This document shows positions 18,783 to 39,293 of a DNA stretch of 64,000 nt, one piece after another. This DNA comes from a virus. Numbering within the stretch: position 1 is the first letter of the stretch; each line of letters starts with the position of its first letter. The stretch is taken from the IMG/VR virus record IMGVR_UViG_3300009168_000041, positions 1 through 64,000 of that record. The stretch is one strand, 5' to 3'. The notes beneath the pieces were generated by a model. The model was not told the DNA's origin. It saw only the letters and a program-made list of their open reading frames with translations, and ran no database searches. The position numbers and the translations under genes were made by a program.

Positions 18783-19205
18783 ATGGGACTAGCGGGCTGG
18801 CTCGGCAATCAATGGGGAAACCTTATCGGCCGCAAGCCAGCCCGCACCCGTCGCAAAAACAACAAACTGAAGCTGGCAATCGTCGCGGCGAACGCCGAAA
18901 ACAGCCGGCTCATGGATTGCCTGGCCGCGGCGATACACGAGCGCGACGAATGGAAACAAGAGAGCGAACGCCAACAGGCGACCATCGAGGGCTTGCACGA
19001 TGACAATGCGGACCTTGAAAAGACTATCCGCCGGCTGGAAGAAGAGAAAGAATTACTCAACGCCGATGTCGAGGCGGCCAGCCGAATGATCGACACACAA
19101 CAGTCGTGGCTTGAGCGAATGCAGGCCGTAGAAACAGCCAAAAGGGCGGTAGCCGAGGGCACACGAGGAGCGTCAAATGGCATCGGTTCTTACCGCGTCG
19201 ATTAA
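18783..19205 (+). CDS. Coiled-coil hypothetical protein
   Basis: Heptad E/R/L-rich pattern; overlaps the portal start. Confidence 0.5.
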   Translation: MGLAGWLGNQWGNLIGRKPARTRRKNNKLKLAIVAANAENSRLMDCLAAAIHERDEWKQESERQQATIEGLHDDNADLEKTIRRLEEEKELLNADVEAASRMIDTQQSWLERMQAVETAKRAVAEGTRGASNGIGSYRVD

Positions 19206-21513
19206 GGCCCACCGCGCCCGCCGCGAGGCCGTGGGGCGCAGCCTAGTTTTATCCAAGGCATCATCTTCATCGTCGCCCATGTCCGTCATGACTGGCGGAT
19301 ATCCAAGCTTCATGGAATTGGCCTATGGTACGACGCTGGCCCGCCAGTCTGAGCAGTTCAGGCACTACTGCGGCTGGTCGTACACCGCAATCAATTGCAT
19401 CGCCCGCCGTCTTGCTGGCCAGAAGGTGAAGATGGGGCGCAAAGCCGAGGCGGCGGCCGAGATATCCACCTGGGCGTGGGACCGGCCGCCCGGCCGCAAG
19501 ATCCCCTTCCATACGCGACTCAAGGCCCCGGAATTCGTCAAGTCGATTGATTCGGACATCGAGGTAATCGAGACGCACCCGCTCTTAGACGCGGTGCAAA
19601 ATCCCAACCCAATCATGACATCATGGGACTTGCTGTTCTTCACCGTGGCCGGGCTGGAAATCACGGGGTTGGCCTATTGGTGGATTACCGATGACACTGG
19701 AGACGGTGAGGACCGGATGCAAATCTGGCCTCTGCCAAGCGATTGGGTGACGCCCAAGCACGGCAAGACGCTTTTCGAGAGCTACGTCATTCAGCCGCCC
19801 GGCCAGTTTGGGGTCAAGGTGGAAGTGGACGCTTCTGAGATTGTGCGGTTTCCGCTCATCGACCCCGCCAACCCACTTGGTACCGTTTCCCCGATGCAAG
19901 CGCAGGCCCCGGCCATAGCGGTTGACGAGGAAATTCAGGTTGCCCAGCATCGGGCGATGAAGAATGATGTGATTCCTGGCTTGGTATTTCGAGTTGGCAG
20001 GTTGCCATCAATGACCGGCATCGGCGAAGGGCCGCGGCCTGTACTTACAACAGAACAACGCCGCGAGCTTTATGACACCATTCGTGTGACTCACCAGGGG
20101 GTCGTCAATTTCCGAATGCCGCTCATCATCGACGGCATGATTGAGGGTGTAGATAGAGTTACCTACGCCCCGGCGGAACTCGACTTCCTCAACTCGGGCA
20201 ACGCGGTCAAGAGTCGCATTTTTCAGTCCTATGGCGTCAACCCGATCGTGGCCGGCGAGATTGCCGGTGTGAATCGGGCCCAAGCCGCCGTGGCTGATAG
20301 CATCTTCCTGCGCGGCGTCTGCAATCCGATCGCCGAAATGATCGGTCAAAAAATGACGCAGCACATCGGCAAGAAGGACGTTTTCTTCTGGCTGGAGATG
20401 CTAGAGGCAGACGATCCGGAATTGAAGTTGCGGCAAATGACAGAGGCAAGCCGCTTGAAGACGGAAAGCGGCAAAGGATTGGTGACGAAAAACGAGTGGC
20501 GGGCACAAATCCTTGGTCTGCCGCCAACGGACGATGGGGAAGAGACGGTAAGCAGTTCACCAGCCCCGCCGCCCAATCCGTTCGGAGTCGGTTTCCCTGG
20601 TCAGACGCCCGGCGGGCCGCCGAAGCTGGGGGAGAAGCCGGGGGATGAGGATGAAGACGGCAAGCCGCGTGGTAAGCTGCTGCCGCCGAAACCAGGTGGG
20701 GAAGGGAGCGGGGCAGGGAATGATACTGGTAACATTGAGGCAGCAGAAGAAAGCAGTAAGTCTGCTATCCGTCAAGTGAAGTTCGACTCCAATCAGCCGC
20801 GCGAACCGGCGGGAAGCCCCGAGGGCGGACAGTGGGCGGGAGGCGAAGGTAGTGGTGGTGGAAGTGGCGGCAGAATGGGTGATACATCGCGTTCATCGCG
20901 CCCGTTTGCTGATCCTTCTATCAAACGGGAATTTAATCCCAAAACTCTGCCGATTAATGCGCTGACATCAAGTACATCCAAGATATCTGATGATTCTAAG
21001 GAAGCGTTGAAGTGGTGGACTAGCGCAGATACCCAGTTCTCAAAAATAAACCGGGCGTTGTGGTCCGACAAGCCGATGCCGGCGAAACTCCAGTCTCTCC
21101 ATAATCGCATCGTCAAAGGTATTGAAGAGGCAAGACCGGTTGCTGAGGGTACCGTTGCCTATCGCGGGATTACACTGAAATCGACACGAGCTAGGGATGA
21201 ATTGGTCAAACAATTCGAGAAGTCGGCGGCCAGTGGTGAGCCTGTCACTATGAAAGGGTTTACTGCGACTTCGCTTGACCCAGAGCTATCTCGCAGTCTC
21301 TACGCCGGTGAACGATGGAAGGCTGTAATGTTTGAAATACGCCCAAAGAATGGCGTGTATCTATCACCTATTAGTACGGTGCCGAGCGAACAGGAATTGC
21401 TGATGAAACCCGGTGCCAAGTTTCGTGTAGCTGGGGTTCAGAAAAGCGTACTTGTCGGTTGGCAGACAGTTCAAGGCACGGGCCATATCCTCATTCAACT
21501 GGAGGAGGTGTAA
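19177..21513 (+). CDS. HK97-type portal protein fused to C-terminal ADP-ribosyltransferase (VIP2/Alt-like, R-S-ExE class)
   Basis: Portal motifs HPLL...NPNP.MT, GLAYWWI, IWPLP, SPM, NEWR...GLPP; then INRAL, AYRG, GFTATS, SEQELL. Confidence 0.85.
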   Translation: MASVLTASIKAHRARREAVGRSLVLSKASSSSSPMSVMTGGYPSFMELAYGTTLARQSEQFRHYCGWSYTAINCIARRLAGQKVKMGRKAEAAAEISTWAWDRPPGRKIPFHTRLKAPEFVKSIDSDIEVIETHPLLDAVQNPNPIMTSWDLLFFTVAGLEITGLAYWWITDDTGDGEDRMQIWPLPSDWVTPKHGKTLFESYVIQPPGQFGVKVEVDASEIVRFPLIDPANPLGTVSPMQAQAPAIAVDEEIQVAQHRAMKNDVIPGLVFRVGRLPSMTGIGEGPRPVLTTEQRRELYDTIRVTHQGVVNFRMPLIIDGMIEGVDRVTYAPAELDFLNSGNAVKSRIFQSYGVNPIVAGEIAGVNRAQAAVADSIFLRGVCNPIAEMIGQKMTQHIGKKDVFFWLEMLEADDPELKLRQMTEASRLKTESGKGLVTKNEWRAQILGLPPTDDGEETVSSSPAPPPNPFGVGFPGQTPGGPPKLGEKPGDEDEDGKPRGKLLPPKPGGEGSGAGNDTGNIEAAEESSKSAIRQVKFDSNQPREPAGSPEGGQWAGGEGSGGGSGGRMGDTSRSSRPFADPSIKREFNPKTLPINALTSSTSKISDDSKEALKWWTSADTQFSKINRALWSDKPMPAKLQSLHNRIVKGIEEARPVAEGTVAYRGITLKSTRARDELVKQFEKSAASGEPVTMKGFTATSLDPELSRSLYAGERWKAVMFEIRPKNGVYLSPISTVPSEQELLMKPGAKFRVAGVQKSVLVGWQTVQGTGHILIQLEEV

Positions 21514-21514
21514 C

Positions 21515-21670
21515 GTGAGTCGGTTCTCTGCTGTATTGGATGAGATTGTATTTGGCACTACGCCAGCAAGGGATATCATCGACGATGAAGAGGAAGAGGA
21601 AGAGGAGGATGATGAAGAGACGCATTCTCGCCCGCCCGCGAAGCCGCAACCGGAAGGTGCCGAGGGATGA
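21515..21670 (+). CDS. Small acidic protein, candidate ART inhibitor
   Basis: GGAGGAGG RBS, GTG start 1 nt after the portal-ART stop, poly-Glu/Asp. Confidence 0.5.
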   Translation: MSRFSAVLDEIVFGTTPARDIIDDEEEEEEEDDEETHSRPPAKPQPEGAEG

Positions 21671-21894
21671 CGCCGCAAACATTTTCTGTCTTTTCTATCT
21701 GGGGACCGACACCTTATACTCCCAACACGCTTCGGCAAGGCGAAGGGCCTGTGGTGTTTGGCGACGGAACAGTAGACGCCGAATGTGTGATAAAGTTTGC
21801 GACGTTCTTAGCACCCACTTGGGAAGATGCTTGCAAAGTGTATGAGGTCTTCCGCGGAGAGATCGAGTGGATGCGAGCGCAGGCACAGACGTGA
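21667..21894 (+). CDS. Hypothetical protein
   Basis: ATGA overlap with the previous stop. Confidence 0.4.
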   Translation: MTPQTFSVFSIWGPTPYTPNTLRQGEGPVVFGDGTVDAECVIKFATFLAPTWEDACKVYEVFRGEIEWMRAQAQT

Positions 21895-21911
21895 ATGCAG
21901 GCGTGAACGCA

Positions 21912-24215
21912 ATGTCTAATCGCGAATCTCTTATCGCCCGCAAGTCTTGGCTTCGCGACGCCTCGATTGCCCTCTGGACGAAAGCTGAACGCGAGGCGGC
22001 ACGCGAAGTCTACGATGCGGCATATCTCTTTTGTCAGGCCCAGCGGCGGGCCGTGGCGGCTGATTTGCGGCGGATTCACGACGACAGCCCCGGTACGAAC
22101 ACGGCGGACAAGATTGAGGCGGACGTTCTGAAAACAAAGGATTGGGAGAAGCTGCTGCGGGATACGGTTGGCGTGGCGGTGGTCAAGACGGTGGCGAGGG
22201 GGTATTTGGCGGCGAAGGCGGCGCAGGTGGGGCGGCGCAGGAGGCAGGCGGCGGGGGTGTGGGGGAAGGGTGGTCCTGGCTCGGGGAATTTCGGCCATGC
22301 TGGCAGGCCAGGAATGGTAGGTGGAAGCGCGGCGGGGGAAGGTGGTGGCACTTCTAGAGTGTCGTGGCCACATGGAGGAAGAAAGCCCGATACGGTATAT
22401 CGGATTCAACCGCAAGGTGCCAATTTACACGGTCAACAGTCCGAGACAAGCAACGGCGAGGTTATTGGTGGAGTTTTTGTATTTGATAACCTCAATGAAC
22501 TAGCTGCGATTGACTGGATGAATGAACCAGACGTTGAGCTTGTCGAAATTAGGATTGAACCCGGCGATACATTCCGAACATTTGACCAAGAGGGTACGGG
22601 ACTTCGGCAAGGCCGTGGTCAGGTTGTAGGTCGTATTCGCTTTGATGATGTTCGTGCTGCACGTGAATGGGCTGTCGAGGAACAAAGTAAAGACAACAAA
22701 AAGACCAGTAGAGTTGATGCCCGTAAATTTACTAAGCAAGGTTGGTCCGATGCCCCGCTCACCGACGCCGAGGAAGCCGAAATTCTCTCATTCGAGCTTC
22801 CGCCGTCCGTCACCCGCCGCGTCTTCGCTCACTCTGCCGAAATCATATCCAAGCCTTATTGGAAGGACGTGACGCAAACGGGGCTGGAATCCATGAAGTG
22901 GAGCATCCAGGAGGGCATCGAAGAGGGTAAGACGCTCAAGCAGATCGCCGATGACATCCAGGGGGACATTGACTCGGATAAAGTGCGTGCGAGGCGGATT
23001 GCAACGACGGAAGTTTCGGGGGCTTACGCCGCAGGCGCGCTTACCGAAGCCGAGGAAGCGGAAGCCGCGGGCGTGCGGATTGCGAAAACATGGATTACCA
23101 TCGGCGACGACAAGGTGCGTCCGCAGCACGAGGATATGGACGGTACGGTTGTGGAGGGTGCGGCCGGACTATTCAACGTCGATGGGGTCGAGGTGCCGTA
23201 TCCGGCGCACCCGGACTTGCCGGCAGCTAGTCGATGTAATTGTCGTTGCACGATGAGCATAGAGCCGATCCTTGAGGGTGAGACGGCCGCCCAGCATATC
23301 GAGGCGTACAAGGCGATAAGAGAGGCGGCAAGATGGCTCAAGTTCGACCCGGACCAGCCGCGTGACCCCGACGGCAAGTGGTCTGGCGGCGGTTCGTATC
23401 ACGCCGTCACTCGCGACAGCAACGGCACAGTTCGGCACAGCGATGGCAAAGTGAGCAAGGAACTCACGGCACGAGCGAAGGCGCTGCGTCTGCCGCCCGC
23501 GTGGACGGACTTGAAAATGAGCGCCGATCCCAAAAACGCTTTACAGGCCACGGGCAAAGACGCCAAGAGCCGCACCCAGTATGTCTATTCGGCGGCGCAT
23601 TCCGAGCGGGCGGCTGCCGAAAAGTTTGGGCGTGTGAAGCGGCTTATTAAAGAGCTTCCGGCCATCGACAAAAGCATTCGCCGCGATGCATCCACGAAAG
23701 ACGAGGCGGCCGTATTGCTTCTCATGCGGAAGACAGGGATTCGCATTGGCTCGGAACGGGATACGAAAGCTGAGAAGCAAGCTTATGGGGCATCGACATT
23801 GCGGGCAGAGCACGTCAAGATCGCCGGCGACAAGGTAACGCTCGCATTCACTGGCAAGAAGGGTGTTGATATCCGGCTGGAAGTCAAAGACAAGGAGCTT
23901 GTCGAGGTGCTCAGAAGTCGAATGGAAAAAGGCGGGAAGCTGTTTGACACTGACGACACGCGGGTAAGGGATTACATGCACTCAATCGACGGCAAATTCA
24001 AACCAAAAGACTTACGGACGATCAAGGCGGCGGACGTAGCACTGCAAACAATGAAGGGCATGTCGTCCCCGAAGAGCCAGGCGGAATTCAAAAAGTTCCG
24101 CAACGCGATAGGCGATGCAGTGGCGGCCAAGCTAGGAAACACGCGGGCCGTGGCGTTGGCAAGCTATGTGCCGCCCGAGGTCTTTTCACCGTGGAAGGCG
24201 AAGCTGGGGATATGA
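21912..24215 (+). CDS. Phage MuF minor head protein with an internal cargo domain and C-terminal DNA topoisomerase IB
   Basis: RARRIATTE, KTW...DDKVRPQH, NCRC (MuF); LPPAW, GKDAKSRTQY, GIRIG, GKKG, KDLRT, LGNT, SYV (complete TopIB catalytic set). Confidence 0.88.
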   Translation: MSNRESLIARKSWLRDASIALWTKAEREAAREVYDAAYLFCQAQRRAVAADLRRIHDDSPGTNTADKIEADVLKTKDWEKLLRDTVGVAVVKTVARGYLAAKAAQVGRRRRQAAGVWGKGGPGSGNFGHAGRPGMVGGSAAGEGGGTSRVSWPHGGRKPDTVYRIQPQGANLHGQQSETSNGEVIGGVFVFDNLNELAAIDWMNEPDVELVEIRIEPGDTFRTFDQEGTGLRQGRGQVVGRIRFDDVRAAREWAVEEQSKDNKKTSRVDARKFTKQGWSDAPLTDAEEAEILSFELPPSVTRRVFAHSAEIISKPYWKDVTQTGLESMKWSIQEGIEEGKTLKQIADDIQGDIDSDKVRARRIATTEVSGAYAAGALTEAEEAEAAGVRIAKTWITIGDDKVRPQHEDMDGTVVEGAAGLFNVDGVEVPYPAHPDLPAASRCNCRCTMSIEPILEGETAAQHIEAYKAIREAARWLKFDPDQPRDPDGKWSGGGSYHAVTRDSNGTVRHSDGKVSKELTARAKALRLPPAWTDLKMSADPKNALQATGKDAKSRTQYVYSAAHSERAAAEKFGRVKRLIKELPAIDKSIRRDASTKDEAAVLLLMRKTGIRIGSERDTKAEKQAYGASTLRAEHVKIAGDKVTLAFTGKKGVDIRLEVKDKELVEVLRSRMEKGGKLFDTDDTRVRDYMHSIDGKFKPKDLRTIKAADVALQTMKGMSSPKSQAEFKKFRNAIGDAVAAKLGNTRAVALASYVPPEVFSPWKAKLGI
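22734..22765 (+). repeat. 32-bp direct repeat copy 1 (encodes KQGWSDAPLT)
   Basis: 31/32 identical to 25178-25209. Confidence 0.9.
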
Positions 24216-25243
24216 GCGCACAAGAAGACTACAGCAGACTCGAAGCGTGGGCGGATTCCGTCCATTATGTCGGCGTCGGTGGCGGCAACCAGTGGGATGA
24301 CGATGAGACGCTTGCGGCGGAATGGTGGGATACGCCGGAGACGCAAGATGATCCCGACGATGAGGAGGATGAGGATAATGTTTCATCAGATACGTCGAAG
24401 CGATTTGCGGAAGTGTTAGGCAAGGGCGGCCCGGGGAGCGGCAACTTTGGACACGCGGGGCGGCCGGGAGAAGTCGGGGGGAGTGGGCCGGGGGGCGCGA
24501 CGGGCGAGGTGAACCCGAAGGTCGAGGCGTGGGCGCGGCAGCGGTTCGGCAGTGAGGAGAAGGCGCAGGCATTTACCAAATGGTTTGGACAGAGCAAAGT
24601 AGTCGATGAGAATGGCGAGCCGCTGGTCGTGTATCATGGGAATCGAGGTGAATCGTTCAATGAATTCGATGCGAGTAAGAATCGTGAACCACCGATGCCG
24701 AATGGATTGAAGCCGTGGTTTTTTGCCAATGATGAGACTATAGCTGGCAGTTATGGGCCAAATATCCAGTCATTCTATCTGCGAATGGATAATGTATTAG
24801 ACGTAACAGAAGTTCCTGTCTGGAATAAGGAGACTGCTGAACGAGATTCAATGTTTGTCCGTTCAGGGGACTACCGCAGGTTTCCTTATTCTTTACGAAA
24901 GGAACTGGAACAAGATGGAGTAAAGGGCGAAACTGATACGCAGCATATTCTTGATTGGATGGACAGTAAAGGCATCGCCTATGCTAAATGGAATTATGCC
25001 AACGCAATGAAGAAGTTTGGTACAAAGTATGATGGGATCATTGCCCGTAACACCCTAGATACATTCGGATCCGAGACACGGGGAGATATCTATATTGCCT
25101 TTAGACCCACTCAAATCAAGTCCACCAACAACCGTGGCACGTTCTCGCCGGACTCATCCGACATCCGCAAGTCCATCAAGCAAGGTTGGTCCGACGCCCC
25201 GCTCACCGAAGGCATCGAAAGCAAGGAGGCGGATACGGAATGA
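24212..25243 (+). CDS. Acidic N-module plus ART-PolyVal-like ADP-ribosyltransferase cassette
   Basis: AFTKWFGQSKVVDENGEPLVVYHG...FD, YDGII, IAFRPTQIKS..NRGTF motifs typical of the polyvalent-protein ART domain. Confidence 0.75.
   Translation: MSAQEDYSRLEAWADSVHYVGVGGGNQWDDDETLAAEWWDTPETQDDPDDEEDEDNVSSDTSKRFAEVLGKGGPGSGNFGHAGRPGEVGGSGPGGATGEVNPKVEAWARQRFGSEEKAQAFTKWFGQSKVVDENGEPLVVYHGNRGESFNEFDASKNREPPMPNGLKPWFFANDETIAGSYGPNIQSFYLRMDNVLDVTEVPVWNKETAERDSMFVRSGDYRRFPYSLRKELEQDGVKGETDTQHILDWMDSKGIAYAKWNYANAMKKFGTKYDGIIARNTLDTFGSETRGDIYIAFRPTQIKSTNNRGTFSPDSSDIRKSIKQGWSDAPLTEGIESKEADTE
25178..25209 (+). repeat. 32-bp direct repeat copy 2 (encodes KQGWSDAPLT)
   Basis: 31/32 identical to 22734-22765. 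Confidence 0.9.
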
Positions 25244-25992
25244 CCGGCTGTTTCGTCCGCGCCCTCTGGGGTGACGAGTACACGCAAGCCCACCCGGGCA
25301 CGCGCCCGCGCCCGTGCAAGACCCGCATGGATGTGCGGGCCGCTCTCCAGTGGCCGAACCGCCTTACCTCTCCCGTGGCCGTCTACAGCTTCGGCGTGGC
25401 CAACCAGCGATTCCTGGAGAAGTTGGGCGTGCGGTCGGTCATGCTGTCTGACGAGTACCTCCCTGGCTGCTTCAGCGGCGACGACCGGAACGTCAAAAAG
25501 CACGGGCAAGTCCACTGGGGCGTCAACCCGTTCAAGTACAAGATTGACGCGATTGCCGACGCCCTGAAAACCTATCCCGATGTCGTCTGGCTCGACTGGG
25601 ACGTGGAACCCGTCGCTCCCGAGCCGCCGGACCTATGGGAAAAACTAGCATGGGACCAGCCGCTCCAGGCGGCCGTGCGAACGCTCCGGGCCCGCTCGGC
25701 GAAGTGGCGGACGGGTGACGAGGCGGGAATGCGGGTTCAGCATCATGGGGCGTTCGTGTACATACGTGGACGCGAAACCGTGCGGCGGCTGCAAACCCTC
25801 GTGGCCGAACGCCCAACGGAGACGGAGGAGCACGCCATCGGCCGGCTGGTTGACGAGATGATGGGCGGCCGGTGGCTCGGGCTGGACACGTATCGGGAAA
25901 TGGGGTTCGTGCCATATTGCTATGACGTAGGGGACAAGCACAATAAGGTGTGGGACGCGGAAGAGGTGGTGTTTATGAACAGGGGAAGATAA
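25240..25992 (+). CDS. Putative GT-A glycosyltransferase, paralog 1
   Basis: CFVRALWGD N-terminal motif; VVWLDWDV DxD motif. Confidence 0.6.
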   Translation: MTGCFVRALWGDEYTQAHPGTRPRPCKTRMDVRAALQWPNRLTSPVAVYSFGVANQRFLEKLGVRSVMLSDEYLPGCFSGDDRNVKKHGQVHWGVNPFKYKIDAIADALKTYPDVVWLDWDVEPVAPEPPDLWEKLAWDQPLQAAVRTLRARSAKWRTGDEAGMRVQHHGAFVYIRGRETVRRLQTLVAERPTETEEHAIGRLVDEMMGGRWLGLDTYREMGFVPYCYDVGDKHNKVWDAEEVVFMNRGR

Positions 25993-26010
25993 CAAACGTG
26001 AAGGAATATC

Positions 26011-27051
26011 ATGCGAATTGTAGTAACGGGCGCGGTGGGCTTCATTGGCTCTTGGTTGTGCGAGCGGCTGATTGCCGATGAGCGTGATGTCGTCGGCGTG
26101 GACGATTTCAGCACGGGGCGGCACGAGAATGTCGGCTGCCTATTGAACGGCGACAGTCGTATGAGGATGTACTGTCATGACGCGGGCGACAAACTAATGA
26201 TGGAGCCAATTATCGCCGAGGCTGATTTTGTGTTCCATTTGGCTGCTACCGTAGGCGTCTTTCAGTACATGCAGGCAAGTGTCACAACCGTCCGCAATAA
26301 CGTCAACACCAGCGATACGGTGTTCGGGCTCTGCAATCGCTACCGCGTGCCGGTGCTCTTTACGAGCACGTCGGAAGTCTACGGCAAGTCGGCGGACGTG
26401 CCGTTCCGCGAGGATGCCGATATCGTCTTAGGGCCGTCCGAGCGGGCGCGGTGGGGCTACGCCGCAAGCAAGCTGACGGATGAGTTTTTGGCACTGGCCT
26501 ATCATCGGCAGTATGGCTTGCCAGTGCGAATCGTGCGGCTGTTCAATTGCGTTGGGCCGCGCCAGACGGGGCGATACGGTATGGTCGTGCCGCGGTTTGT
26601 CAGCCAGGCCAAAGCGGGGCAGCCGATGACGGTGTTCGGCGACGGCAACCAGACGCGGTGTTTTTGTTCTGTCCACGATATCGTGGATGGACTGATTGCC
26701 ATTGCTGGTTGCGGGGCCGCGGTGGGGCGGGTGGTGAATCTCGGAACTGACGAGGAAGTGTCGATAAACGAATTGGCGGAAGAGGTGGCGTTCTACGTCA
26801 ACCCGCACGGCGGCATTGTGCATGTTTCGTACTCAGAAGCTTACGGGGAAGGGTTCGAGGATATGACGCGGCGGGTGCCGGACATCACGCGGGCAAGGGA
26901 ACTCATCGGTTGGAAGCCGAGGCTATCGCTGGCGGATATTCTCGTAGAGATGGCAAACGAAAGGAATACATCATGCAAGGGGGCTGCTTCGTCCGCTGTC
27001 TCTTCGGCGACGCCACCATCCCCAACTTCGCTTCCGTGCTCAACGAAGTAA
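26011..27051 (+). CDS. NAD-dependent NDP-sugar epimerase/decarboxylase (extended SDR)
   Basis: TGAVGFIG, STSEVYG, YAASK, GDGNQTRCF. Confidence 0.9.
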   Translation: MRIVVTGAVGFIGSWLCERLIADERDVVGVDDFSTGRHENVGCLLNGDSRMRMYCHDAGDKLMMEPIIAEADFVFHLAATVGVFQYMQASVTTVRNNVNTSDTVFGLCNRYRVPVLFTSTSEVYGKSADVPFREDADIVLGPSERARWGYAASKLTDEFLALAYHRQYGLPVRIVRLFNCVGPRQTGRYGMVVPRFVSQAKAGQPMTVFGDGNQTRCFCSVHDIVDGLIAIAGCGAAVGRVVNLGTDEEVSINELAEEVAFYVNPHGGIVHVSYSEAYGEGFEDMTRRVPDITRARELIGWKPRLSLADILVEMANERNTSCKGAASSAVSSATPPSPTSLPCSTK

Positions 27052-27758
27052 AATGGTGCGTCGAGCGGCCCCACCAGCCCGAACCGACGCTCTGGTATGT
27101 CTTCGGCGAAGCCAACCGGGATGTCCTTCGCGATTGTGGTTGCCACCCCATCATGCTCTCGCCGGAACCGTTCTGCTACTTCGGCCACGACGACGGCAGC
27201 GGCATTAGCCACGACGGTCTGGTTCGCGGCGGCTCTAGCCTATGGCGGCACAAGTATCCGGCCATTGCGGACGCCTTGCACGTCTACCCGGCGGCTGTGT
27301 GGCTTGACTTCGATACGTTCCCATCGGGGGTCGTGCCGGCCGACTTCTGGACTCGGCTGGCGGCCGGGGCCGCATTCCAAGGCACCCTCGGGCAAATGGG
27401 CATGAAGCGGGCGAAGTGGCGAACGTGCGATGAGCGAAAGATACCGCTCGGGGCAATGCTCTACTTTCGTGGCCGCGAGTCCATCCAAGCGATGTTGGAC
27501 TTGTACGCCGAACATCCCGGCGAGTGGGACATGGTTGTGCTTGCCCGCCTGGCTGACCAGATGATGGGCGGTTGGAAGGGGCCGGAAGAGTACGTCAAGC
27601 AAGGATTTCAATTGTACTGCCACATACTGCTGCGGCGGCTGCGGTGGCAAGTCTACGCACCGGAGCAGCGGCTATTCGTGACGTTGACGGAGCATAAGCA
27701 GACGGTTCGCAAGGCGATAAAGGAATTGCAGGGTGGAATTGCGGACGGCGGAAATTGA
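26973..27758 (+). CDS. Putative GT-A glycosyltransferase, paralog 2
   Basis: CFVRCLFGD; VWLDFD; MMGGW. Confidence 0.6.
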   Translation: MQGGCFVRCLFGDATIPNFASVLNEVKWCVERPHQPEPTLWYVFGEANRDVLRDCGCHPIMLSPEPFCYFGHDDGSGISHDGLVRGGSSLWRHKYPAIADALHVYPAAVWLDFDTFPSGVVPADFWTRLAAGAAFQGTLGQMGMKRAKWRTCDERKIPLGAMLYFRGRESIQAMLDLYAEHPGEWDMVVLARLADQMMGGWKGPEEYVKQGFQLYCHILLRRLRWQVYAPEQRLFVTLTEHKQTVRKAIKELQGGIADGGN

Positions 27759-27963
27759 AGCGGGAGCGGCCAAGGCGGCACCGGAACCCCTGGCTGATAA
27801 CTTGGCTGATAACCCGATGGATAACCCGACGGCTAACCTGACGGCCTTGGTAGGCAACCCACGCTGGGCGCGGGTGCATCGTCGGATATGGGACACGCCA
27901 GGCAGCATTCTGGATATCGGCTGCGCCGGGTGGCAGTGGAGCCGGCAATTCATCGGACGCCGC
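27733..27963 (+). pseudogene. 5' fragment of a SAM-dependent methyltransferase, cut by the IS
   Basis: ILDIGCAG motif I; reading frame runs into the left IR at 27964. Confidence 0.55.
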
Positions 27964-28369
27964 GGTAGTGGTACAGTTTGAGGGGACTGGCAGAAAAAAC
28001 GCCAGGAAATAACCTAGGCCGCCAGTGTAACCAGCGGCCTAGGTTGGAAGTGTGCGCGACCCAGATGGCATAATGTGCGGGTTTTCACCGAGCCTGTAGT
28101 ATTTCCCCGAACGAGACCATCGGGTAATTGATATCTTTCCTTGGTGACGGGCTCAGATCCCAAGGCGCGCCTCCGTCAAAAACTCCGCCAAGCTACACCT
28201 TCCTTTCTCGGCCATGCGGCCGATCTGCTCATCATAGCTATTCGCCGGGTGAAAGCAACTCTTAGCCCCACCCCCCACAGTCTGAGACAAATGGCCGGGG
28301 GGAGATGGTCAGGAATTGTTACGTAAGTTTTCAGGCCGAAGAAAATAATCTTTGGACTGACTTGAGTGG

Positions 28370-28398
28370 TTGACAATCAAATTCGACATTGGTAAACT
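28370..28398 (+). promoter_or_regulatory. Sigma70-like promoter inside the IS
   Basis: TTGACA-17 bp-TAAACT. Confidence 0.55.
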
Positions 28399-28431
28399 TC
28401 TCTCATGGTGCTAGATGCGAGGAGTGGACGT

Positions 28432-28791
28432 ATGGCAAATCCGGTCATCGAAAAGTTGCGACAAGCAATCGACGCGAAGCACGCCGAGGCATTGGCGAGC
28501 CTCACGAAGCTTGCGACCTACCTGGAGGATCTGGGGTCGCCGGCAACAAATGGACAGGGGCAGAAAGGCAAGAAGCCATCCCCTCGTGCGGGAACCGGGA
28601 AGATCCGAAATGCCGTCATCGCTGCCTTCCGGGAGGAATATTTGCCGGTTGACGTAGTGGCAGAACGGATCAAGAAGACGCCCCTTCAGGTTAGGGGTGT
28701 TGTGCTGTCACCGGCCATCAAGAAGCAGTTTTCCAAGAAGGAAGTCGATGGAGTGATGCACTACAAATACGAAGGAGCGACCAAAGAATGA
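28432..28791 (+). CDS. IS passenger: small basic, possibly winged-HTH protein
   Basis: GAGGAG RBS; N-terminal helix, basic linker, helical C-terminal domain. Confidence 0.5.
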   Translation: MANPVIEKLRQAIDAKHAEALASLTKLATYLEDLGSPATNGQGQKGKKPSPRAGTGKIRNAVIAAFREEYLPVDVVAERIKKTPLQVRGVVLSPAIKKQFSKKEVDGVMHYKYEGATKE

Positions 28792-29128
28792 AAATGGCCC
28801 GCGACATCCACGGCATGGAAAACTGAGGATGTCGGGGCCAATTCACCCAGCAGGGAGAGCATTGTCGGTGGCAAAGCCAATAAGACCACCGGAGGTGTCG
28901 CCTGAGCCTCCACCGCTCAGGCGGGGCGGGGTCCAAACCTGCCTTGCCTTGCTGGCTTTTAATGTTACCTAGTTTATCGCATGAAGTCAACGCCCTCATA
29001 CCTAATGTGGCGATGGTCGCTGTCTCCCTTGTTCTGGAGAGTGGCCCGCGTCTTGGCGGCGCAGCAGTCTTATAACCTGCCGGAGGGGTCCGCTTCTGCG
29101 CGGACGGGATCGTAACCCCCTCTCTCCG

Positions 29129-29317
29129 CTAGCCCCGTGCGATTCGCCGCTGGGCTCCCCGCATCAGCGTATTCCGAGCCCACTTGGACATCTTCACGCC
29201 CTCTAGCTGGGCCGCCTGTTCGCAGTCTGCCTTTTCGGCCGACGTGAGCCGGATTTGGACAACGTGGCCCTTACGCTCATCGGGGGGTTTAACCGGGGCT
29301 CCGCGTTTCTTTCCCAT
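29129..29317 (-). CDS. Ribbon-helix-helix-like regulator
   Basis: VVQIRLTSAEKA..EQAAQLEGVKMSKWAR pattern; divergent from the transposase. Confidence 0.6.
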   Translation of the reverse strand: MGKKRGAPVKPPDERKGHVVQIRLTSAEKADCEQAAQLEGVKMSKWARNTLMRGAQRRIARG

Positions 29318-29323
29318 AGCGGA

Positions 29324-29392
29324 ATTGTAGTGCAATTATTCTGGCTGTCAACCTGTTTTCCCTCTTGACTCCCAGAATAATTGCACTACAAT
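29324..29392. promoter_or_regulatory. Mirror-image divergent promoters / operator
   Basis: Perfect 21-bp inverted repeat 29324-29344/29372-29392; TTGACW-16 bp-TACAAT on both strands. Confidence 0.7.
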
Positions 29393-29535
29393 AAATATAG
29401 ATGCTTGACAACCAGAACGAAAAACCCCGGCCGGGATTGGCGTCTCGACCGGGGCGAATCACAGACCGGCTTTCGCCAGAATGCGACCCGAGCAAGCCCA
29501 TTCTAGCGAGAGCCCCGACGAAAGGGAATCTCGCC

Positions 29536-30462
29536 ATGTCCAACATCCTCCCCCGCGAAAAGCAGATCGAAGTCCTTCACCACCTGGTTGAAGGCAACAC
29601 GCTCCGCAGCACGGCCCGCCTAACGGGCATTCACCGCACGACCATCACGAACCTCATGGTCCGCTTCGGCATGGTCTGTAAGGCGTTCATGGACCGCCAG
29701 CTACGCGGCCTGACGCTCAACCACGTTGAGGTTGACGAAATCTGGACGTTCGTTTGGAAGAAGCAAGGCCGCCTCACGGCCGAAGAGAAAGCCGAGTGCC
29801 ACGACCGCGGCGATATTTTCTTGTGGACTGCTTTGGACGCCGAAACGAAGCTGGTGGCTTCCTTCCTGGTAGGCAAGCGATCGGGCGACAACGCGCGGCG
29901 GCTCATGAAAGACCTAGCAAGCCGGCTGGTCATGCCCAAGCCTCACCAGAGCGATCCCCACGCCTACAAGGCCGGCGGGTACGTCTACGTCACTCGGCTG
30001 AGCAGCGATGCCTTCGCGGCCTACCCTGAGGCGGTGGACTTGGCTTTCGGTCCCTACGCCAAGTTTGGGACGATCAAGAAGGACTACCGCAACGCGGACC
30101 AGCCCGGTCGCTACGCCCCGCCGGAAATGGTCGGCACTGAGCGCCGCGGCGTGTTTGGGATACGGGAGGATGAGGAGCGGGGGATTTGCACGTCCCACGT
30201 CGAGCGCCACAACCTGACGATCCGAACCCTCATGAAGCGATTCACCCGGCTCTGCCTCGGCTTCTCCAAGAAGCTGGAGAACCTGGAAGCGGCCTGCGCC
30301 ATGTTTCTGGCGTTCTACAACTTCGTCTGGCGCACGAGGGACGCGAACGAGGGCCGGACCCGGGTGCCCGCCGCAATGGCCGCTGGCGTGGTCAAGAGCC
30401 TCTGGAGCTTCGAGAACCTGTTTGACCGCGTGATGGGCGGGCAACAGGCGATAGCAGCATGA
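29536..30462 (+). CDS. IS1-family DDE transposase
   Basis: N-terminal HTH; VEVDEIWTFVWKK, SSDAF, TSHVERHNLTIR...FTRL..GFSKK. Confidence 0.88.
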   Translation: MSNILPREKQIEVLHHLVEGNTLRSTARLTGIHRTTITNLMVRFGMVCKAFMDRQLRGLTLNHVEVDEIWTFVWKKQGRLTAEEKAECHDRGDIFLWTALDAETKLVASFLVGKRSGDNARRLMKDLASRLVMPKPHQSDPHAYKAGGYVYVTRLSSDAFAAYPEAVDLAFGPYAKFGTIKKDYRNADQPGRYAPPEMVGTERRGVFGIREDEERGICTSHVERHNLTIRTLMKRFTRLCLGFSKKLENLEAACAMFLAFYNFVWRTRDANEGRTRVPAAMAAGVVKSLWSFENLFDRVMGGQQAIAA

Positions 30463-30615
30463 TTCCCCTTGCCAAGGGGTGGGAAAATACAGAAAATGAA
30501 AGCGGCCGGTGGGGACCGGCCGCTTTCTCGTTTCTTGTGCCGCTGGGGCGACACTGGCATCAAGCTACCGCCATTGTACGCCCTCCGGCTTGGTCTAGCA
30601 AGGGGAGGGCGTGCG

Positions 30616-31197
30616 ATGGCGGAATCACGGGCGTGCATTGATTGTGGTCGTCTCGGTTGGGTGAACAACCAGGAAATCAATGAAGAGCGTCGGGATGAAA
30701 TCAGGACGCCACCGGCACATCGCGTCGATAGACTTCCCGTCTATTGCTATGGGAGTACCCACCGATTTCCAGAGACAAAGGAAACCGAAAGACACCGTAA
30801 CTCGCTCATGCAGGCTTGGGAATGTCCTCATGGGTTCATTCAACATTGCGATGGGCAAAGTCCAAAGGACCATCTTGAAATGATATCGCTAGAAGAAAAT
30901 CGGCGATGGCAAAAAGACCAAGAAATTGACCGTCGCCAATGGGAAGAAAAGCAAGAGAATGGCCGACAAGCTTGGGAGGAGAAACGTGAGAGCTGGCATG
31001 TTCGACAGGGGCATCGTACCTTGATGGTTGCCGCAGTTGCTGTTATTGTAGCGGTCCTTTCTCCATTCGTGCAGTGGTGGTTAAGTCAACAAAGTCAGCC
31101 CACGGCTGTTGTTCCACAACCGTCAGTTTCTACTTTCGCACCTGCCAACCAAGCAAATAGTCTCCCTGCATCCACGGATTCTTCCTCCGGAGACTGA
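30616..31197 (+). CDS. IS passenger: hypothetical membrane protein
   Basis: GGAGG RBS; CxxC, coiled coil, C-terminal TM helix. Confidence 0.45.
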   Translation: MAESRACIDCGRLGWVNNQEINEERRDEIRTPPAHRVDRLPVYCYGSTHRFPETKETERHRNSLMQAWECPHGFIQHCDGQSPKDHLEMISLEENRRWQKDQEIDRRQWEEKQENGRQAWEEKRESWHVRQGHRTLMVAAVAVIVAVLSPFVQWWLSQQSQPTAVVPQPSVSTFAPANQANSLPASTDSSSGD

Positions 31198-31672
31198 CGC
31201 CACGAACGCCAACGAACTGGACTTTCTGAAAGATCAGACGTTACCGCCCTCAGCGGGACGCAAGGGCTGGCCGCCGTGGGTCTGCTGGTCGCTCATCGGG
31301 GCAAACGTGGTCGTTCTGCTCTGCCTATGTTGGGTTGGTTACCTTGTGTTTTTCGGAAGCAAACCGAAACAGCAACCATCCCGCGTGACTAAGGCCAATT
31401 ATGACAAGATCCACGAGGGAATGAGTGAACAGGATGTGACAACCATTCTGGGGCATGGGCAGGCGTTTGTGGAGTTGACCTTGCCGAAGCGACAACCAGA
31501 GACAGGTCTAGTGCCGATCAAGGAATGGAGCCAAGCGTTTCAAGAATCTGTCCTGCGGAAACCAAATCCAACGTCCATGAAGAGCGTGAAGTGGGTGACC
31601 AGCCGGTGCATGATCGAAGTCACTTTCAGCGATGGAGTCGTCAAGCAGAAAAGTTACGAAGTCCTTCAGTAA
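31109..31672 (+). CDS. IS passenger: membrane-anchored SmpA/OmlA(BamE)-like domain protein (start uncertain)
   Basis: TM helix then VTKANYDKIHEGMSEQDVTTILG motif. Confidence 0.45.
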   Translation: MFHNRQFLLSHLPTKQIVSLHPRILPPETDATNANELDFLKDQTLPPSAGRKGWPPWVCWSLIGANVVVLLCLCWVGYLVFFGSKPKQQPSRVTKANYDKIHEGMSEQDVTTILGHGQAFVELTLPKRQPETGLVPIKEWSQAFQESVLRKPNPTSMKSVKWVTSRCMIEVTFSDGVVKQKSYEVLQ

Positions 31673-37964: not shown

Positions 37965-39293
37965 ATGGCGGACGCCGACTACGTAGAAGTCCATATCCAG
38001 TTCCCGCCCGCCGACACCGACGCCGTTAAGAATCGCCACATCAAAGCATGGGATGTGAACGCGGCCGAGGCGGGCACTGCTGGCCAGCCGTTCGTCAATA
38101 AGACGCTCGCCAACACCGTCAACTTCTACTCGTTCTCGTGCTTGAGTGGTGCCCGCATTCGCGTCGGCCAGTATGACGTAATGAACGGCGGTCGCGTGAC
38201 GGAGATGCACACGATCGAGTTCGGTGCCCATGCGGGGACGTGGGTGGAAACCGAATGGCTGTGGGTGAGCGACATCCAGGACCTCAGCGAATCGTCAAGC
38301 AGCACGTCCAGCACTTCCACCGCCGAGGTGAGCCGGTCGTCATCTTCCTCGACATCATCCAGTTCCAAGTCTACGGAATCGCTCAGCAGCTTCTCGTCGT
38401 CCACGGCTTCCACTGCATCCGTCACTTCGGAAAGCAGCCTGAGCACGACATCGACAAGCACGCTTGTTTCCACGTCTTCCACGAGCAGCAGCACGACATC
38501 GAGTTCCTCGTGGTCTTCGCCCAGCGTATCTACGCTATCGTCGCAAAGTGCGGCCAGCGAATCGTCGGCCAGCGAATCCAGCGAATCGTCAACCAGTTCG
38601 GCTAGCACGTCTTCTAGCAGCACGGCCGAAGCTTCCTGGTCGAGTTCCTCGACGACGAGCGGTTCTAGCAGCAGCACGTCAAGCGTTTCCACGACTTCTG
38701 GTAGCTCGTCTTCTAGCTCGTCCACGGTGGTGGCGTCCGGCTCGTCAAGTTCTACGTCAAGCAGCACCTCGTCTAGCACGTCCAGTAGCACGACGGAAAG
38801 CATTACCTCGGCTTCTTCGTTGAGCTACTCGACGGCAACTTCGTCTAGCACATCTTCGTCTAGCACGAGTGCATCTTCGCTGTCGAGCGCGTCTAGTGTT
38901 TCAGGTTCGTCGTCAAGCTCGAATAGCTCGTCTTCAACGGTTGTGGCTTCGTGGTCGTCAAGCAGCACATCAAGCAGTTCGTCGAAGAGTGAATCGTCGT
39001 CTTCGTCGAAGAGCGTATCGTCGTCTTCTTCCAATTCGGAAAGCTCAACCAGCACCGCCGGTGCTTCGTGGTCGTCTTCATCGTCGTCTAGCACGGCATC
39101 GGTTTCGAGTTCGTCCAGCAAATCTGTTTCGTCTTCCTCCACCTCAAGTTCGTCTAGCGCGTCGGTTTCGTCGTCGTCTTCCAAGTCGGTATCTTCTTCC
39201 TCGGCCTCTAGTTCCTCGACCGTCGAAATTTCGATGTCCAGTTCGTCCTCTACGTCTTCTTCCAGCACCAGTAGTTCGGAGAGCCAGGGATGA
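37965..39293 (+). CDS. Protein with ~105-aa beta domain and ~330-aa poly-Ser/Thr tail
   Basis: GGGAG RBS; Ser tract ~38286-39283; ATGA overlap with the prohead protease. Confidence 0.75.
   Translation: MADADYVEVHIQFPPADTDAVKNRHIKAWDVNAAEAGTAGQPFVNKTLANTVNFYSFSCLSGARIRVGQYDVMNGGRVTEMHTIEFGAHAGTWVETEWLWVSDIQDLSESSSSTSSTSTAEVSRSSSSSTSSSSKSTESLSSFSSSTASTASVTSESSLSTTSTSTLVSTSSTSSSTTSSSSWSSPSVSTLSSQSAASESSASESSESSTSSASTSSSSTAEASWSSSSTTSGSSSSTSSVSTTSGSSSSSSSTVVASGSSSSTSSSTSSSTSSSTTESITSASSLSYSTATSSSTSSSSTSASSLSSASSVSGSSSSSNSSSSTVVASWSSSSTSSSSSKSESSSSSKSVSSSSSNSESSTSTAGASWSSSSSSSTASVSSSSSKSVSSSSTSSSSSASVSSSSSKSVSSSSASSSSTVEISMSSSSSTSSSSTSSSESQG

Follow-up and report, generated by a model that had tools for sequence, protein, structure and literature searches.

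A MuF-type minor head protein with a C-terminal topoisomerase IB domain, a candidate injected cargo of an uncultured phage

The MuF-TopIB gene and its place in the head operon

The DNA analyzed here (the window) is a stretch of 64,000 nucleotides, positions 1 to 64,000 of IMG/VR record IMGVR_UViG_3300009168_000041, a linear viral record of 87.6 kb that is 79% complete and derives from an uncultured freshwater-sediment phage. The head genes in the window follow the canonical order terL - portal - MuF - protease - major capsid (Table 1), and the MuF gene, P0001, codes for a single polypeptide in which a MuF domain, a type IB topoisomerase (TopIB) and a further tag-bounded cassette, here called domain X, are joined. 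Two small ORFs separate it from the portal gene, which is itself fused to an ADP-ribosyltransferase (ART) domain, and this fusion indicates that head-vertex proteins are used as cargo carriers in this phage. An acidic ORF behind the portal-ART gene (21515-21670) resembles by eye the TopIB partner described below, but it gives no match to the HMM of that family and was rejected as a member.

There are three possible starts for P0001, GTG 21867, GTG 21891 and ATG 21912, and a single stop, TGA 24213-24215. The ATG, which had been chosen as the start in a preliminary description of this DNA, is codon 16 of the 21867-24215 frame, and GTG 21891 is a possible start because it overlaps the stop of the upstream ORF as GTGA. 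An independent Logan assembly of the probable source run is identical to the record over 23700-24700, with zero differences. The helical N-terminus of the protein resembles that of other MuF-family proteins; its BLASTP alignment with aa 34-146 of the closest relative (P0004, in which the domains are TopIB, partner, another domain and MuF) is weak and not significant (E 0.44).

The MuF core at aa 343-463 scores 61.5 bits against Phage_Mu_F (PF04233; Pfam cut-off 29.6) and matches the PHROG head morphogenesis family phrog_2468 (E 1.5e-28). The tag KFDPDQPRDPDGKW, which comes after the NCRC motif (aa 458-461), lies at nt 23340-23381, exactly where the preliminary description had placed it. In phage SPP1 the MuF-type protein gp7 attaches to the portal, and each capsid holds 1-2 copies of it (PMC5576092). 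Judged by its own domains, P0001 would be a MuF-type (SPP1 gp7-like) minor head protein turned cargo carrier, predicted to bind the portal and to be present in the capsid.

Table 1. Features of the MuF-TopIB locus and of the surrounding head genes (positions are those of the window).
Feature	Position	Strand	Remarks
TerL	8495-10354		upstream of MuF-TopIB gene
Portal fused via KFDSNQPREPAGSPEGGQW-type tag to ADP-ribosyltransferase	19177..21513	+	Phage_portal E 5.3e-32, ADPrib_exo_Tox E 1.8e-11
MuF-TopIB gene P0001	21867..24215	+	open frame, 782 aa from GTG 21867
N-terminal helical segment, aa ~9-126	21891..22244	+	AlphaFold2 helices 9-126, pLDDT 50-75
Tag 1 GKGGPGSGNFGHAGRPGMVGGS, aa 133-154	22263..22328	+	recurs in P0003
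Cassette domain X, aa ~160-288	22345..22730	+	tag-bounded, no Pfam match
Junction peptide KQGWSDAPLT, aa 290-299	22734..22763	+	leads into MuF core
MuF core, aa 343-463	22893..23255	+	Pfam Phage_Mu_F; ends in CNCRC motif
Tag 2 KFDPDQPRDPDGKW, aa 492-505	23340..23381	+	leader of TopIB cassette
TopIB N-terminal beta-sheet (DNA-binding) domain, aa ~510-575	23394..23591	+	Top1B_N_bact; includes PPAWTD
TopIB catalytic domain, aa 576-782	23592..24212	+	Topoisom_I, 2f4q alignment, AlphaFold2
Catalytic codon R626	23742-23744	+	
Catalytic codon K664	23856-23858	+	
Catalytic codon R717	24015-24017	+	
Catalytic codon N758	24138-24140	+	
Catalytic codon Y767	24165-24167	+	
P0003	24212..25243	+	likely start ATG 24212, ATGA overlap with TopIB stop; GTG 24191 also used for numbering
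Acidic TopIB partner SRLEAWADSVHY...WDDDETLAAEWWDTPETQDDPDDEE	24233..24373	+	P0003 aa 15-61 from GTG 24191
Weak S78-like protease, candidate prohead protease	39290-41110		
HK97-type capsid protein	41171-42799		downstream of MuF-TopIB gene

A complete topoisomerase IB domain

Four observations bear on the nature of the C-terminal part of P0001. First, both domains of a bacterial-type TopIB are recognized by Pfam, Top1B_N_bact (PF21338) at aa 531-565 with 37.3 bits (cut-off 27) and Topoisom_I (PF01028) at aa 582-763 with 81.9 bits (cut-off 23.7). Second, the best solved relative is the TopIB of Deinococcus radiodurans (2f4q, E 5.2e-24 over aa 533-775), of which residues R137, K174, R239, N280 and Y289 align with R626, K664, R717, N758 and Y767 of P0001; the R-K-R-N-Y residues pointed out in the preliminary description thus form a complete pentad. 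Third, across 97 long homologues the pentad columns hold R in 97, K in 97, R in 97, N in 95 (with H in one) and Y in 96, the sole exception being one truncated protein, and conservation of this degree in the alignment is not due to chance. Fourth, AlphaFold2 models aa 510-782 with pLDDT values of 88-98 (88-94 for the strands at 511-574), and a proxy of 66% identity gives a model that fits the DNA-bound TopIB of variola with a TM of 0.71 over 314 columns and the D. radiodurans enzyme with an E of 6e-15 in a fold search. Telomere resolvases and tyrosine recombinases are also among the fold-search matches, at low rank. We read the C-terminus of P0001 as a complete two-domain TopIB of bacterial type that is apparently active, and predict that it relaxes DNA. 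The Pfam matches and the 2f4q alignment agree with the earlier account, in which the KFDPDQPRDPDGKW tag of a MuF protein leads into a TopIB with all of its catalytic residues.

Type IB topoisomerases need neither ATP nor Mg, and they work through a 3'-phosphotyrosyl covalent DNA intermediate, as kin of the telomere resolvases and tyrosine recombinases. The pentamer CCCTT, the cleavage site of both the poxvirus and the D. radiodurans enzymes, shows no bias in the window (94 occurrences against 95.8 expected) and, being neither depleted nor enriched, offers no clue to the target of the phage TopIB. Its strand asymmetry (25/69) probably follows the purine-rich coding strand.

Conserved tags and a second cassette

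Tag 1 (GKGGPGSGNFGHAGRPGMVGGS) and its copy in the next gene, P0003, are identical at 21 of 22 residues, and 19 of those 21 are specified by different codons. Since the residues are kept while the codons differ, the peptide is under purifying selection; it is also found in about 20 proteins with other payloads. The junction peptide KQGWSDAPLT is likewise repeated, at the C-terminus of P0003, as part of a 45-nt DNA repeat that is 84% identical. A tag of the same type as tag 2 (KFDPDQPRDPDGKW), in the form KFDSNQPREPAGSPEGGQW, links the portal to its ART domain. Of 203 homologues, 77 have a KFDPDQPRDPDGKW- or GNFGH-type tag in the 70 aa that precede TopIB, compared with 4 of 203 when shuffled, and the GNFGH tag is present on RelA/SpoT, PARP, ART, zeta-toxin and 2H/Acb1 payloads as well. 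The tag between the MuF core and TopIB is probably flexible.

Domain X matches no Pfam or PHROG family, and a single real homologue was found, P0216, which is also a MuF protein. AlphaFold2 models it with pLDDT below 50, and its structural neighbors in the Atlas, DUF3990 and DUF6886, were rejected as its fold because the similarity is too low (TM no higher than 0.48). With this second tag-bounded cassette besides TopIB, P0001 would be, by its predicted domains, a polyvalent protein, with domain X as a candidate effector.

An acidic partner follows TopIB

P0003, which begins where the TopIB gene ends, consists in order of the acidic TopIB partner, a GNFGH tag, an ART-PolyVal domain and the KQGWSDAPLT tail. 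The partner, which in this phage is the N-terminus of a 343-aa ART-PolyVal effector, is aromatic and rich in Asp and Glu, with a DPDD(E) tail. An HMM built without sequences from the window matches this segment at an iE of 5.8e-10, and all 17 of its in-protein matches elsewhere (17/17) sit 1-11 aa after a TopIB domain; no match was found that does not directly follow TopIB, in a set that includes only about 22 non-TopIB proteins.

The conserved partner always stands behind TopIB, in fused and split forms alike. In P0004, P0100, P0114 and others the two share one chain, and at five distinct loci (L003-L007, with L008 a repeat of L007) a small acidic ORF of its own encodes the partner. Segments homologous to TopIB and to parts of P0003 form a single polypeptide in P0004, and a frameshift or an assembly error joining TopIB and P0003 in our phage was considered and rejected: no slippery sequence of the X XXY YYZ type was seen at the junction, and the second assembly agrees with the record. 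The arrangement is explained by the ATGA stop/start coupling.

TopIB cargo in other phages

Many uncultured phages have this cassette in common. The nearest public TopIBs are mostly cargo, in that 112 of the best 150 representatives, taken with no length filter, exceed 430 aa; roughly one in four of the nearest representatives is 430 aa long or less, and some of these are perhaps fragments. The preliminary description had noted neither this prevalence of cargo forms nor the acidic partner nor the polyvalent make-up of P0001. A survey of architectures, as proposed in the preliminary description, revealed MuF fusions in 8 and portal fusions in 33 of the 97 long homologues, the portals belonging to PF06381 (16), PF06074 (9), PF04860 (6) and PF05136 (2). 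Other companion domains in these proteins are InPase (11), plus NUDIX, ART, 2H/Acb1, ParB and SNF2, and 76 of the 97 have TopIB at their C-terminal end. Among the IMG/VR loci, the TopIB gene adjoins or sits within the portal gene in L002, L006, L007 and L008, and the TopIB forms of L004 and L005, of 382 and 363 aa, have no carrier domain recognized by Pfam.

No cassette was found among the cultured phages of INPHARED, where the matches are 27-33% identical (those followed up, at most 29.3%). Two were inspected, those of Bacteroides phage BS162P1 and of Rhizobium phage RHph_N46, one of five similar Rhizobium phage records; both are stand-alone TopIBs, 27-29% identical, that lie outside the head modules and have neither tags nor partner. 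Exact peptide patterns found no relatives in 185,579 species-representative genomes.

Possible roles of the tethered topoisomerase

The interpretation that we favor, and to which we give about an even chance of being right, is that an active TopIB swivel is loaded into the capsid and injected; packaging, injection, activity and target are alike inferred. The MuF core would bind the portal in the procapsid, so that a few TopIB molecules would be enclosed with the genome, and at infection these would leave through portal and tail, the route taken by T4 Alt and other internal proteins. Needing neither ATP nor Mg, TopIB would then be a swivel for topologically constrained DNA, most probably the entering phage genome; at 1-12 copies per virion, action on the phage's own DNA would be a better fit than relaxation of the whole nucleoid. 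The proposal of packaging and injection made in the preliminary description gains strong comparative support from the five carrier families and from tags common to ART, RelA/SpoT, 2H/Acb1, PARP and zeta-toxin payloads.

The swivel may help early transcription or circularization, for which the encapsidated TopIB of vaccinia offers a parallel. This poxvirus precedent, invoked in the preliminary description, is real: the type I topoisomerase that vaccinia packages in its virion serves mainly early transcription (PMC12188299, with reference to Da Fonseca & Moss 2003 and Shaffer & Traktman 1987). There are also counterpoints to a swivel. A free linear genome holds no supercoils, and the need for a swivel is an assumption; moreover, the candidate prohead protease could remove TopIB before or after packaging.

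Within the capsid-loaded reading, the acidic partner would most likely occupy the basic DNA clamp of TopIB and keep the enzyme silent both in the cell that makes it and in a head filled with DNA, and the partner that is fused to ART-PolyVal may in addition tether this second effector to MuF-TopIB. When AlphaFold2 was applied to P0100, a natural chain of TopIB and trailer, the trailer had pLDDT below 55 and was not docked on TopIB; because the in-chain partner was left undocked, the idea of a plug is without structural support. We suggest tentatively, as a proposal that may well prove wrong, that tag, TopIB and partner make up an undescribed and widespread cassette that loads a silenced TopIB via portal or MuF, and that in this phage the partner stayed at the N-terminus of the following effector when the gene was split, where it would both inhibit TopIB and dock ART onto MuF-TopIB for the passage into the head.

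It seems unlikely that TopIB acts instead at the portal vertex, on DNA being pumped in or out and with no need of the host cytoplasm, the tethered enzyme nicking and resealing the genome and so releasing the twist that arises from the motor and from spooling. Such a role would suit the location, since all identified structural carriers (MuF and the four portal families) are found where DNA passes, TopIB is nearly always at the C-terminal end of its carrier, and the C-terminal end of the portal faces the capsid interior. It would also suit an enzyme independent of ATP and Mg, whose action an inhibitor-like partner could time. However, the same tags and carriers bear ART, RelA/SpoT, 2H/Acb1, NUDIX, PARP and zeta-toxin domains, which have no conceivable role inside a capsid, and roughly one in four of the nearest representatives is short (some perhaps as fragments), while the L004 and L005 forms have no carrier domain recognized by Pfam. 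To our knowledge, most tailed phages package their DNA without any topoisomerase.

We think it quite improbable that P0001 is a MuF polymorphic toxin, in which TopIB would damage DNA or relax the nucleoid of competitors or non-lysogenized cells and the partner would be the immunity protein. The architecture fits, with MuF followed by a variable C-terminal enzyme and a small downstream ORF, and 89.4% of 191 MuF toxin genes have a small ORF next downstream (PMC5576092); the confinement of partner HMM matches to positions after TopIB, fused and split (with about 22 non-TopIB proteins in the set), accords with it too. The toxin family is nonetheless described as exclusive to temperate phages (PMC5576092), and no tyrosine integrase (PF00589) was found in the 87.6-kb record, which is 79% complete. 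TopIB, furthermore, reseals its own cuts and is not intrinsically toxic, it is absent from the published catalogue of these toxins (PMC5576092), and its partner is often in the same polypeptide, an unusual arrangement where immunity proteins are concerned. The wording of the preliminary description, an enzyme rather than a classical toxin, may for all that prove wrong: a conserved acidic partner after TopIB is the pattern to be expected of a toxin with its immunity protein or inhibitor (PMC5576092).

The fusion might also be a matter of late co-expression, with a protease freeing TopIB for replication, recombination or concatemer processing in the producing cell. The conserved tags could be cleavage sites, the weak S78-like protease gene is present, and BS162P1 and RHph_N46 do have TopIBs outside their head modules; these are, however, the distant forms without tags or partner. 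Co-expression hardly explains repeated independent fusion to five capsid-resident carrier families, and late expression fits a replication enzyme poorly, so that we consider this very unlikely. Least credible of all is a covalent end-cap or pilot, likened to Mu N or T4 gp2, in which TopIB cleaves near the genome end and stays 3'-phosphotyrosyl-bound, shielding the entering end from exonucleases or keeping the two ends together: type IB enzymes do form a covalent DNA intermediate, resolvase and recombinase kin occur at low rank in the fold search and the tether, like the DNA end, is located at the vertex, but all five cleavage and religation residues are kept, as in true topoisomerases, and CCCTT is without site bias in the window.

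Significance and comparison with known systems

If the capsid-loaded, injected reading is true and the modular cassette of tag, enzyme and partner is the vehicle, many uncultured phages would manage DNA topology from the first seconds of infection, and a DNA-topology enzyme would join the protein- and nucleotide-modifying enzymes in the repertoire of injected effectors. For TopIB the acidic partner would be an inhibitory peptide of natural origin or a handle, and the conserved tags would be testable as general capsid-cargo signals.

The MuF/portal-TopIB cassette belongs with the virion-fused effectors, and we found no paper that describes a TopIB version; a literature search for MuF or portal proteins fused to TopIB, or for the GRPG motif, found nothing relevant. 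Fusions of MuF and portal proteins have been interpreted as injected effectors (Iyer, Burroughs, Anand, de Souza and Aravind 2017, PMC5512222). The phage-type polyvalent proteins of that study share with P0001 a head-vertex protein joined to enzymatic domains, a place among the late genes and, if domain X is an effector, several payloads per chain, and the adjoining ART-PolyVal and the portal-ART fusion in the window are of the same kind. They differ in that TopIB is not treated there ('topoisomerase' occurs only in a reference title), and the text, when checked for 'linker' and 'cleavage', yielded no description of conserved leader tags. The MuF polymorphic toxins (Jamet et al. 2017, PMC5576092) likewise combine MuF with a variable C-terminal enzyme, their small downstream ORF may have its counterpart in the acidic partner, and TopIB is absent from the text and six supplementary files of that paper. 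Whereas those toxins are described from temperate phages, no sign of temperate life was found in this 79%-complete record, and here an extra cassette upstream interrupts the MuF core and the partner forms part of another effector.

T4 Alt is targeted to the head by a short N-terminal capsid-targeting sequence that is removed by the head protease, whereas here capsid targeting would come from the covalent MuF fusion. The two would otherwise be alike, Alt being a head-packed enzyme that enters the host along with the DNA and reprograms early infection (cited in PMC5512222).

The TopIB of D. radiodurans (2f4q/3m4a) is the best match in both sequence and fold, at about 30% identity, and shares the two domains and the R-K-R-N-Y residues with Asn rather than His at the fourth position. 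It is a free cellular enzyme, in contrast to the phage form, which is the tagged end domain of a capsid protein with a dedicated acidic partner.

The only viruses known to us to have a type IB topoisomerase in their virions are the poxviruses. The poxvirus enzymes (vaccinia, variola; 2h7f) share the fold (TM 0.71 for the proxy model against variola) and are small TopIBs of a virion, as the phage form would be, serving mainly early transcription. They differ in being free core proteins with His at the fourth position, loaded without a portal-vertex fusion and distant in sequence (E 3e-8). If it is indeed packaged and injected, the cassette would give tailed phages a counterpart to the TopIB in poxvirus virions.

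The MuF-TopIB gene and its context

The frame encoding the MuF-TopIB protein (P0001) is open through 782 codons, and there are three candidate starts: GTG 21867, with GGAG 7 bases before it, GTG 21891, which shares GTGA with the stop of the preceding ORF, and ATG 21912, which was chosen in the preliminary description and is possible as one of these three options. Residues are numbered here from GTG 21867. Three Pfam domains score over their curated thresholds, Phage_Mu_F (aa 343–463), Top1B_N_bact (aa 531–565) and Topoisom_I (aa 582–763). The closest solved structure to the TopIB region is Deinococcus radiodurans TopIB (2f4q, E 5.2e-24), and R137/K174/R239/N280/Y289 of 2f4q align with R626/K664/R717/N758/Y767; the initial identification of a MuF protein carrying TopIB with an intact R-K-R-N-Y active site is thus borne out, and the motifs reported with it do lie where they were placed (CNCRC at aa 457–461 and KFDPDQPRDPDGKW at nt 23340). 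The fourth catalytic position is Asn, not His, which assigns the domain to the bacterial subfamily. AlphaFold2 models aa 510–782 with pLDDT 88–98, and a modelled natural relative (66% identical) matches D. radiodurans TopIB with E 6e-15 and DNA-bound variola TopIB with TM 0.71.

The record is a linear IMG/VR virus of 87.6 kb (CheckV-estimated completeness 79%) whose first 64 kb make up the window, and the sole public run containing it is a freshwater-sediment metagenome. Nearly all genes in the window are on the + strand. The genes from the large terminase to the HK97-type major capsid protein make up the head operon, and the MuF-TopIB gene is inside it. Upstream of the MuF-TopIB gene, a Pro/Gly-rich linker and the tag KFDSNQPREPAGSPEGGQW connect a portal protein with an ADPrib_exo_Tox-type ADP-ribosyltransferase (ART); this fusion is a second head-vertex cargo of the same phage. 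The first of the two intervening small ORFs contains a 14-long Asp/Glu run; the second overlaps it as ATGA and the possible MuF-TopIB start as GTGA. The 1722-aa protein looks depolymerase- or fibre-like, and its location is unusual. Within the sugar-modification-like block, the ORFs at 25186–25992 and 26910–27758 have no family match.

Features of the window and TopIB genes of two cultured phages
Feature	Position	Strand	Remarks
Large terminase	8495–10354	+	PHROG E 4.7e-51
BNR_4 and right-handed beta-helix protein, 1722 aa	13026–18194	+	between terminase and portal genes
Portal-ART fusion	19177–21513	+	Phage_portal E 5.3e-32; ADPrib_exo_Tox E 1.8e-11
Acidic small ORF, 51 aa	21515–21670	+	begins 2 bases past portal-ART stop; GGAGG upstream
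Small ORF, 75 aa	21667–21894	+	4-nt overlaps on both sides
MuF-TopIB gene (P0001)	21867–24215	+	after two small ORFs downstream of portal-ART
Domain X cassette	22345–22730	+	P0001 aa ~160–288, tag-bounded
ART-PolyVal protein (P0003)	24212–25243	+	ART-PolyVal E 4.2e-19
Sugar-modification-like block	25186–31200	+	directly after cargo genes
NAD-dependent epimerase/dehydratase	26011–27051		only block member identified as sugar-modification function
tRNA-Ile(TAT)	29035–29129		inside the block
IS1-type transposase	29401–30462		interrupts the block
S78-like prohead protease	39290–41110		weak match
HK97-type major capsid protein	41171–42799
Rhizobium phage RHph_N46 TopIB	L010 2909–4729		606 aa; 340-aa N-terminus without assignment; DUF6527 gene next
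Bacteroides phage BS162P1 TopIB	L009 1827–2591		254-aa minimal form, among small genes

TopIB as proposed cargo in other phages

A survey of MuF-TopIB architectures was advocated in the preliminary description. Among 97 proteins with TopIB of this type (the search being restricted to 430–1369 aa and carriers being assigned from precomputed Pfam), eight have MuF and 33 a portal domain, the latter from four families (PF04860, PF06074, PF06381 and PF05136). Other companions are InPase (11), NUDIX, ART, 2H/Acb1, ParB, SNF2 and prohead protease. TopIB is the extreme C-terminus in 76 of the 97, and the catalytic pentad is complete in all full-length members. An exhaustive search of 1.84 billion representatives with no length filter gave 5,909 matches (1,170 with E ≤1e-30); the best 150 include 112 longer than 430 aa (median 597) and several short TopIBs that start with a tag. 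Relatives are also encoded at seven IMG/VR loci, for example as a portal and then a TopIB-MuF fusion (L002), a single Portal_Mu...TopIB protein of 1826 aa (L006), or Portal_Mu followed by a GNAT...TopIB protein (L007, L008). Judged from these recurrent fusions, TopIB appears to be a widespread head-vertex cargo.

Tags and cassettes

In P0001 an N-terminal helical segment (aa 9–126) is followed by the domain X cassette, the MuF core and TopIB. Domain X is flanked by GKGGPGSGNFGHAGRPGMVGGS and KQGWSDAPLT, and the same pair of peptides flanks the ART-PolyVal domain of P0003. The two copies of the first tag are identical at 21 of 22 residues, 19 of which use different codons, so selection has conserved the peptide, and a recent duplication of the DNA does not account for it. 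This tag occurs at 70–95% identity in about 20 database proteins, which either carry payloads (RelA/SpoT, ADP-ribosyltransferases, PARP, 2H/Acb1, zeta toxin, PI3/4-kinase and a lethal-factor-like protease) or are portals and MuF proteins. The tag preceding TopIB (FDPxQPRDxxGKW) is of the same type as that between portal and ART in this phage, and in 77 of 203 homologues a tag of either type is found no more than 70 residues N-terminal to TopIB (4 of 203 when shuffled).

Domain X itself has no family match and a single real homologue, another MuF protein; AlphaFold2 gave no usable model, and its structural neighbours in the Atlas (DUF3990 and DUF6886, TM ≤0.48) are at most a lead. The C-terminus of P0003 is ...IKQGWSDAPLTEGIESKEADTE, the junction peptide that precedes the MuF core in P0001, and the 45-nt DNA repeat is 84% identical between the two genes; P0003 looks like a cassette excised from a MuF protein. 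In the closest relative, P0004 (TopIB 65% identical), the TopIB cassette occupies the slot that domain X has in P0001, behind the N-terminal helices and ahead of the MuF core, and on this comparison cassettes evidently move between slots.

The conserved acidic partner of TopIB

The TopIB stop and the next ATG overlap as ATGA (24212–24215), and P0003 begins MSAQEDYSRLEAWADSVHY...WDDDETLAAEWWDTPETQDDPDDEEDED, followed by a GNFGH tag and ART-PolyVal. There are several characteristics of this acidic segment. First, its homologue in P0004 is in one polypeptide with TopIB, immediately past ...WKSKLGI, and a similar trailer (approximately h-x-D-h-F-E-T-x-x-Y-D-x-x-G-D-W, then D-P-D-D-D-E, where h is hydrophobic) lies behind TopIB in many proteins in which TopIB is non-terminal. 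Second, where TopIB is gene-terminal, at five distinct IMG/VR loci (L003–L007; L008 repeats L007 and is counted with it), an acidic ORF of 27–69 aa is immediately downstream. Third, an HMM built without window sequences matches the window partner (iE 5.8e-10), and all 17 of its matches in other proteins are 1–11 residues past the TopIB domain end, with none elsewhere. Finally, the Logan contig from the run that is the probable source agrees base for base over 23700–24700, so the split between TopIB and partner genes is not one assembler's product. The ORF at 21515–21670 resembles other phages' partners by eye and was rejected as a candidate since the HMM does not match it; in this data set the partner therefore goes with TopIB. 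In a natural TopIB-trailer chain (P0100) the trailer has pLDDT <55, so AlphaFold2 gave no confident plug placement.

Possible roles

The analysis establishes the domains, the complete active site, the place in the operon, the repeated fusions to carriers, the common tags and the partner. We propose that fusion to MuF would enclose TopIB in the head, from which it would exit together with DNA, the route suggested generally for effectors fused to MuF or portals (PMC5512222), and that it would then relax topologically constrained DNA when infection starts. At one to twelve copies in each particle, TopIB would more plausibly act on the entering phage genome than on the host nucleoid. The acidic, aromatic partner is best read as a putative DNA-mimicking inhibitor of the basic TopIB clamp, and in this phage may also offer a handle on the ART-PolyVal protein fused to it. 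We give this whole chain an even chance of being correct. CCCTT occurs 94 times in the window (95.8 expected) and does not help in choosing among readings; its strand asymmetry (25 on +, 69 on −) probably follows the coding-strand purine bias.

That TopIB is instead a vertex swivel, active while DNA is packaged or ejected, seems unlikely. A MuF toxin paired with an immunity protein is rather less probable, and against it no integrase was found in the record, at its estimated 79% completeness. We doubt somewhat more strongly that TopIB is a producer-cell enzyme, cleaved off and never packaged, and a covalent end-cap is highly improbable.

Comparison with known systems

The best TopIB matches in 50,697 deposited phage records are 27–33% identical, and those inspected (≤29.3% identity) are outside head modules and have neither tag nor partner; they include the distant TopIBs (27–29%) of the cultured phages RHph_N46 and BS162P1. 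TopIB is absent from two systematic surveys: PMC5512222 has the word "topoisomerase" in the title of a reference and nowhere else, and PMC5576092 lacks it in its text and six supplementary files. In addition, a full-text literature search for TopIB with MuF, portal, phage or virion returned nothing relevant. MuF- and portal-fused effectors are an already known kind; this case adds a polyvalent MuF protein that has two cassette slots, a relative whose cassette sits in the other slot, and a partner fused to a second effector. The relaxation proposed at the start of infection would resemble the situation in vaccinia, where encapsidated TopIB serves early transcription.
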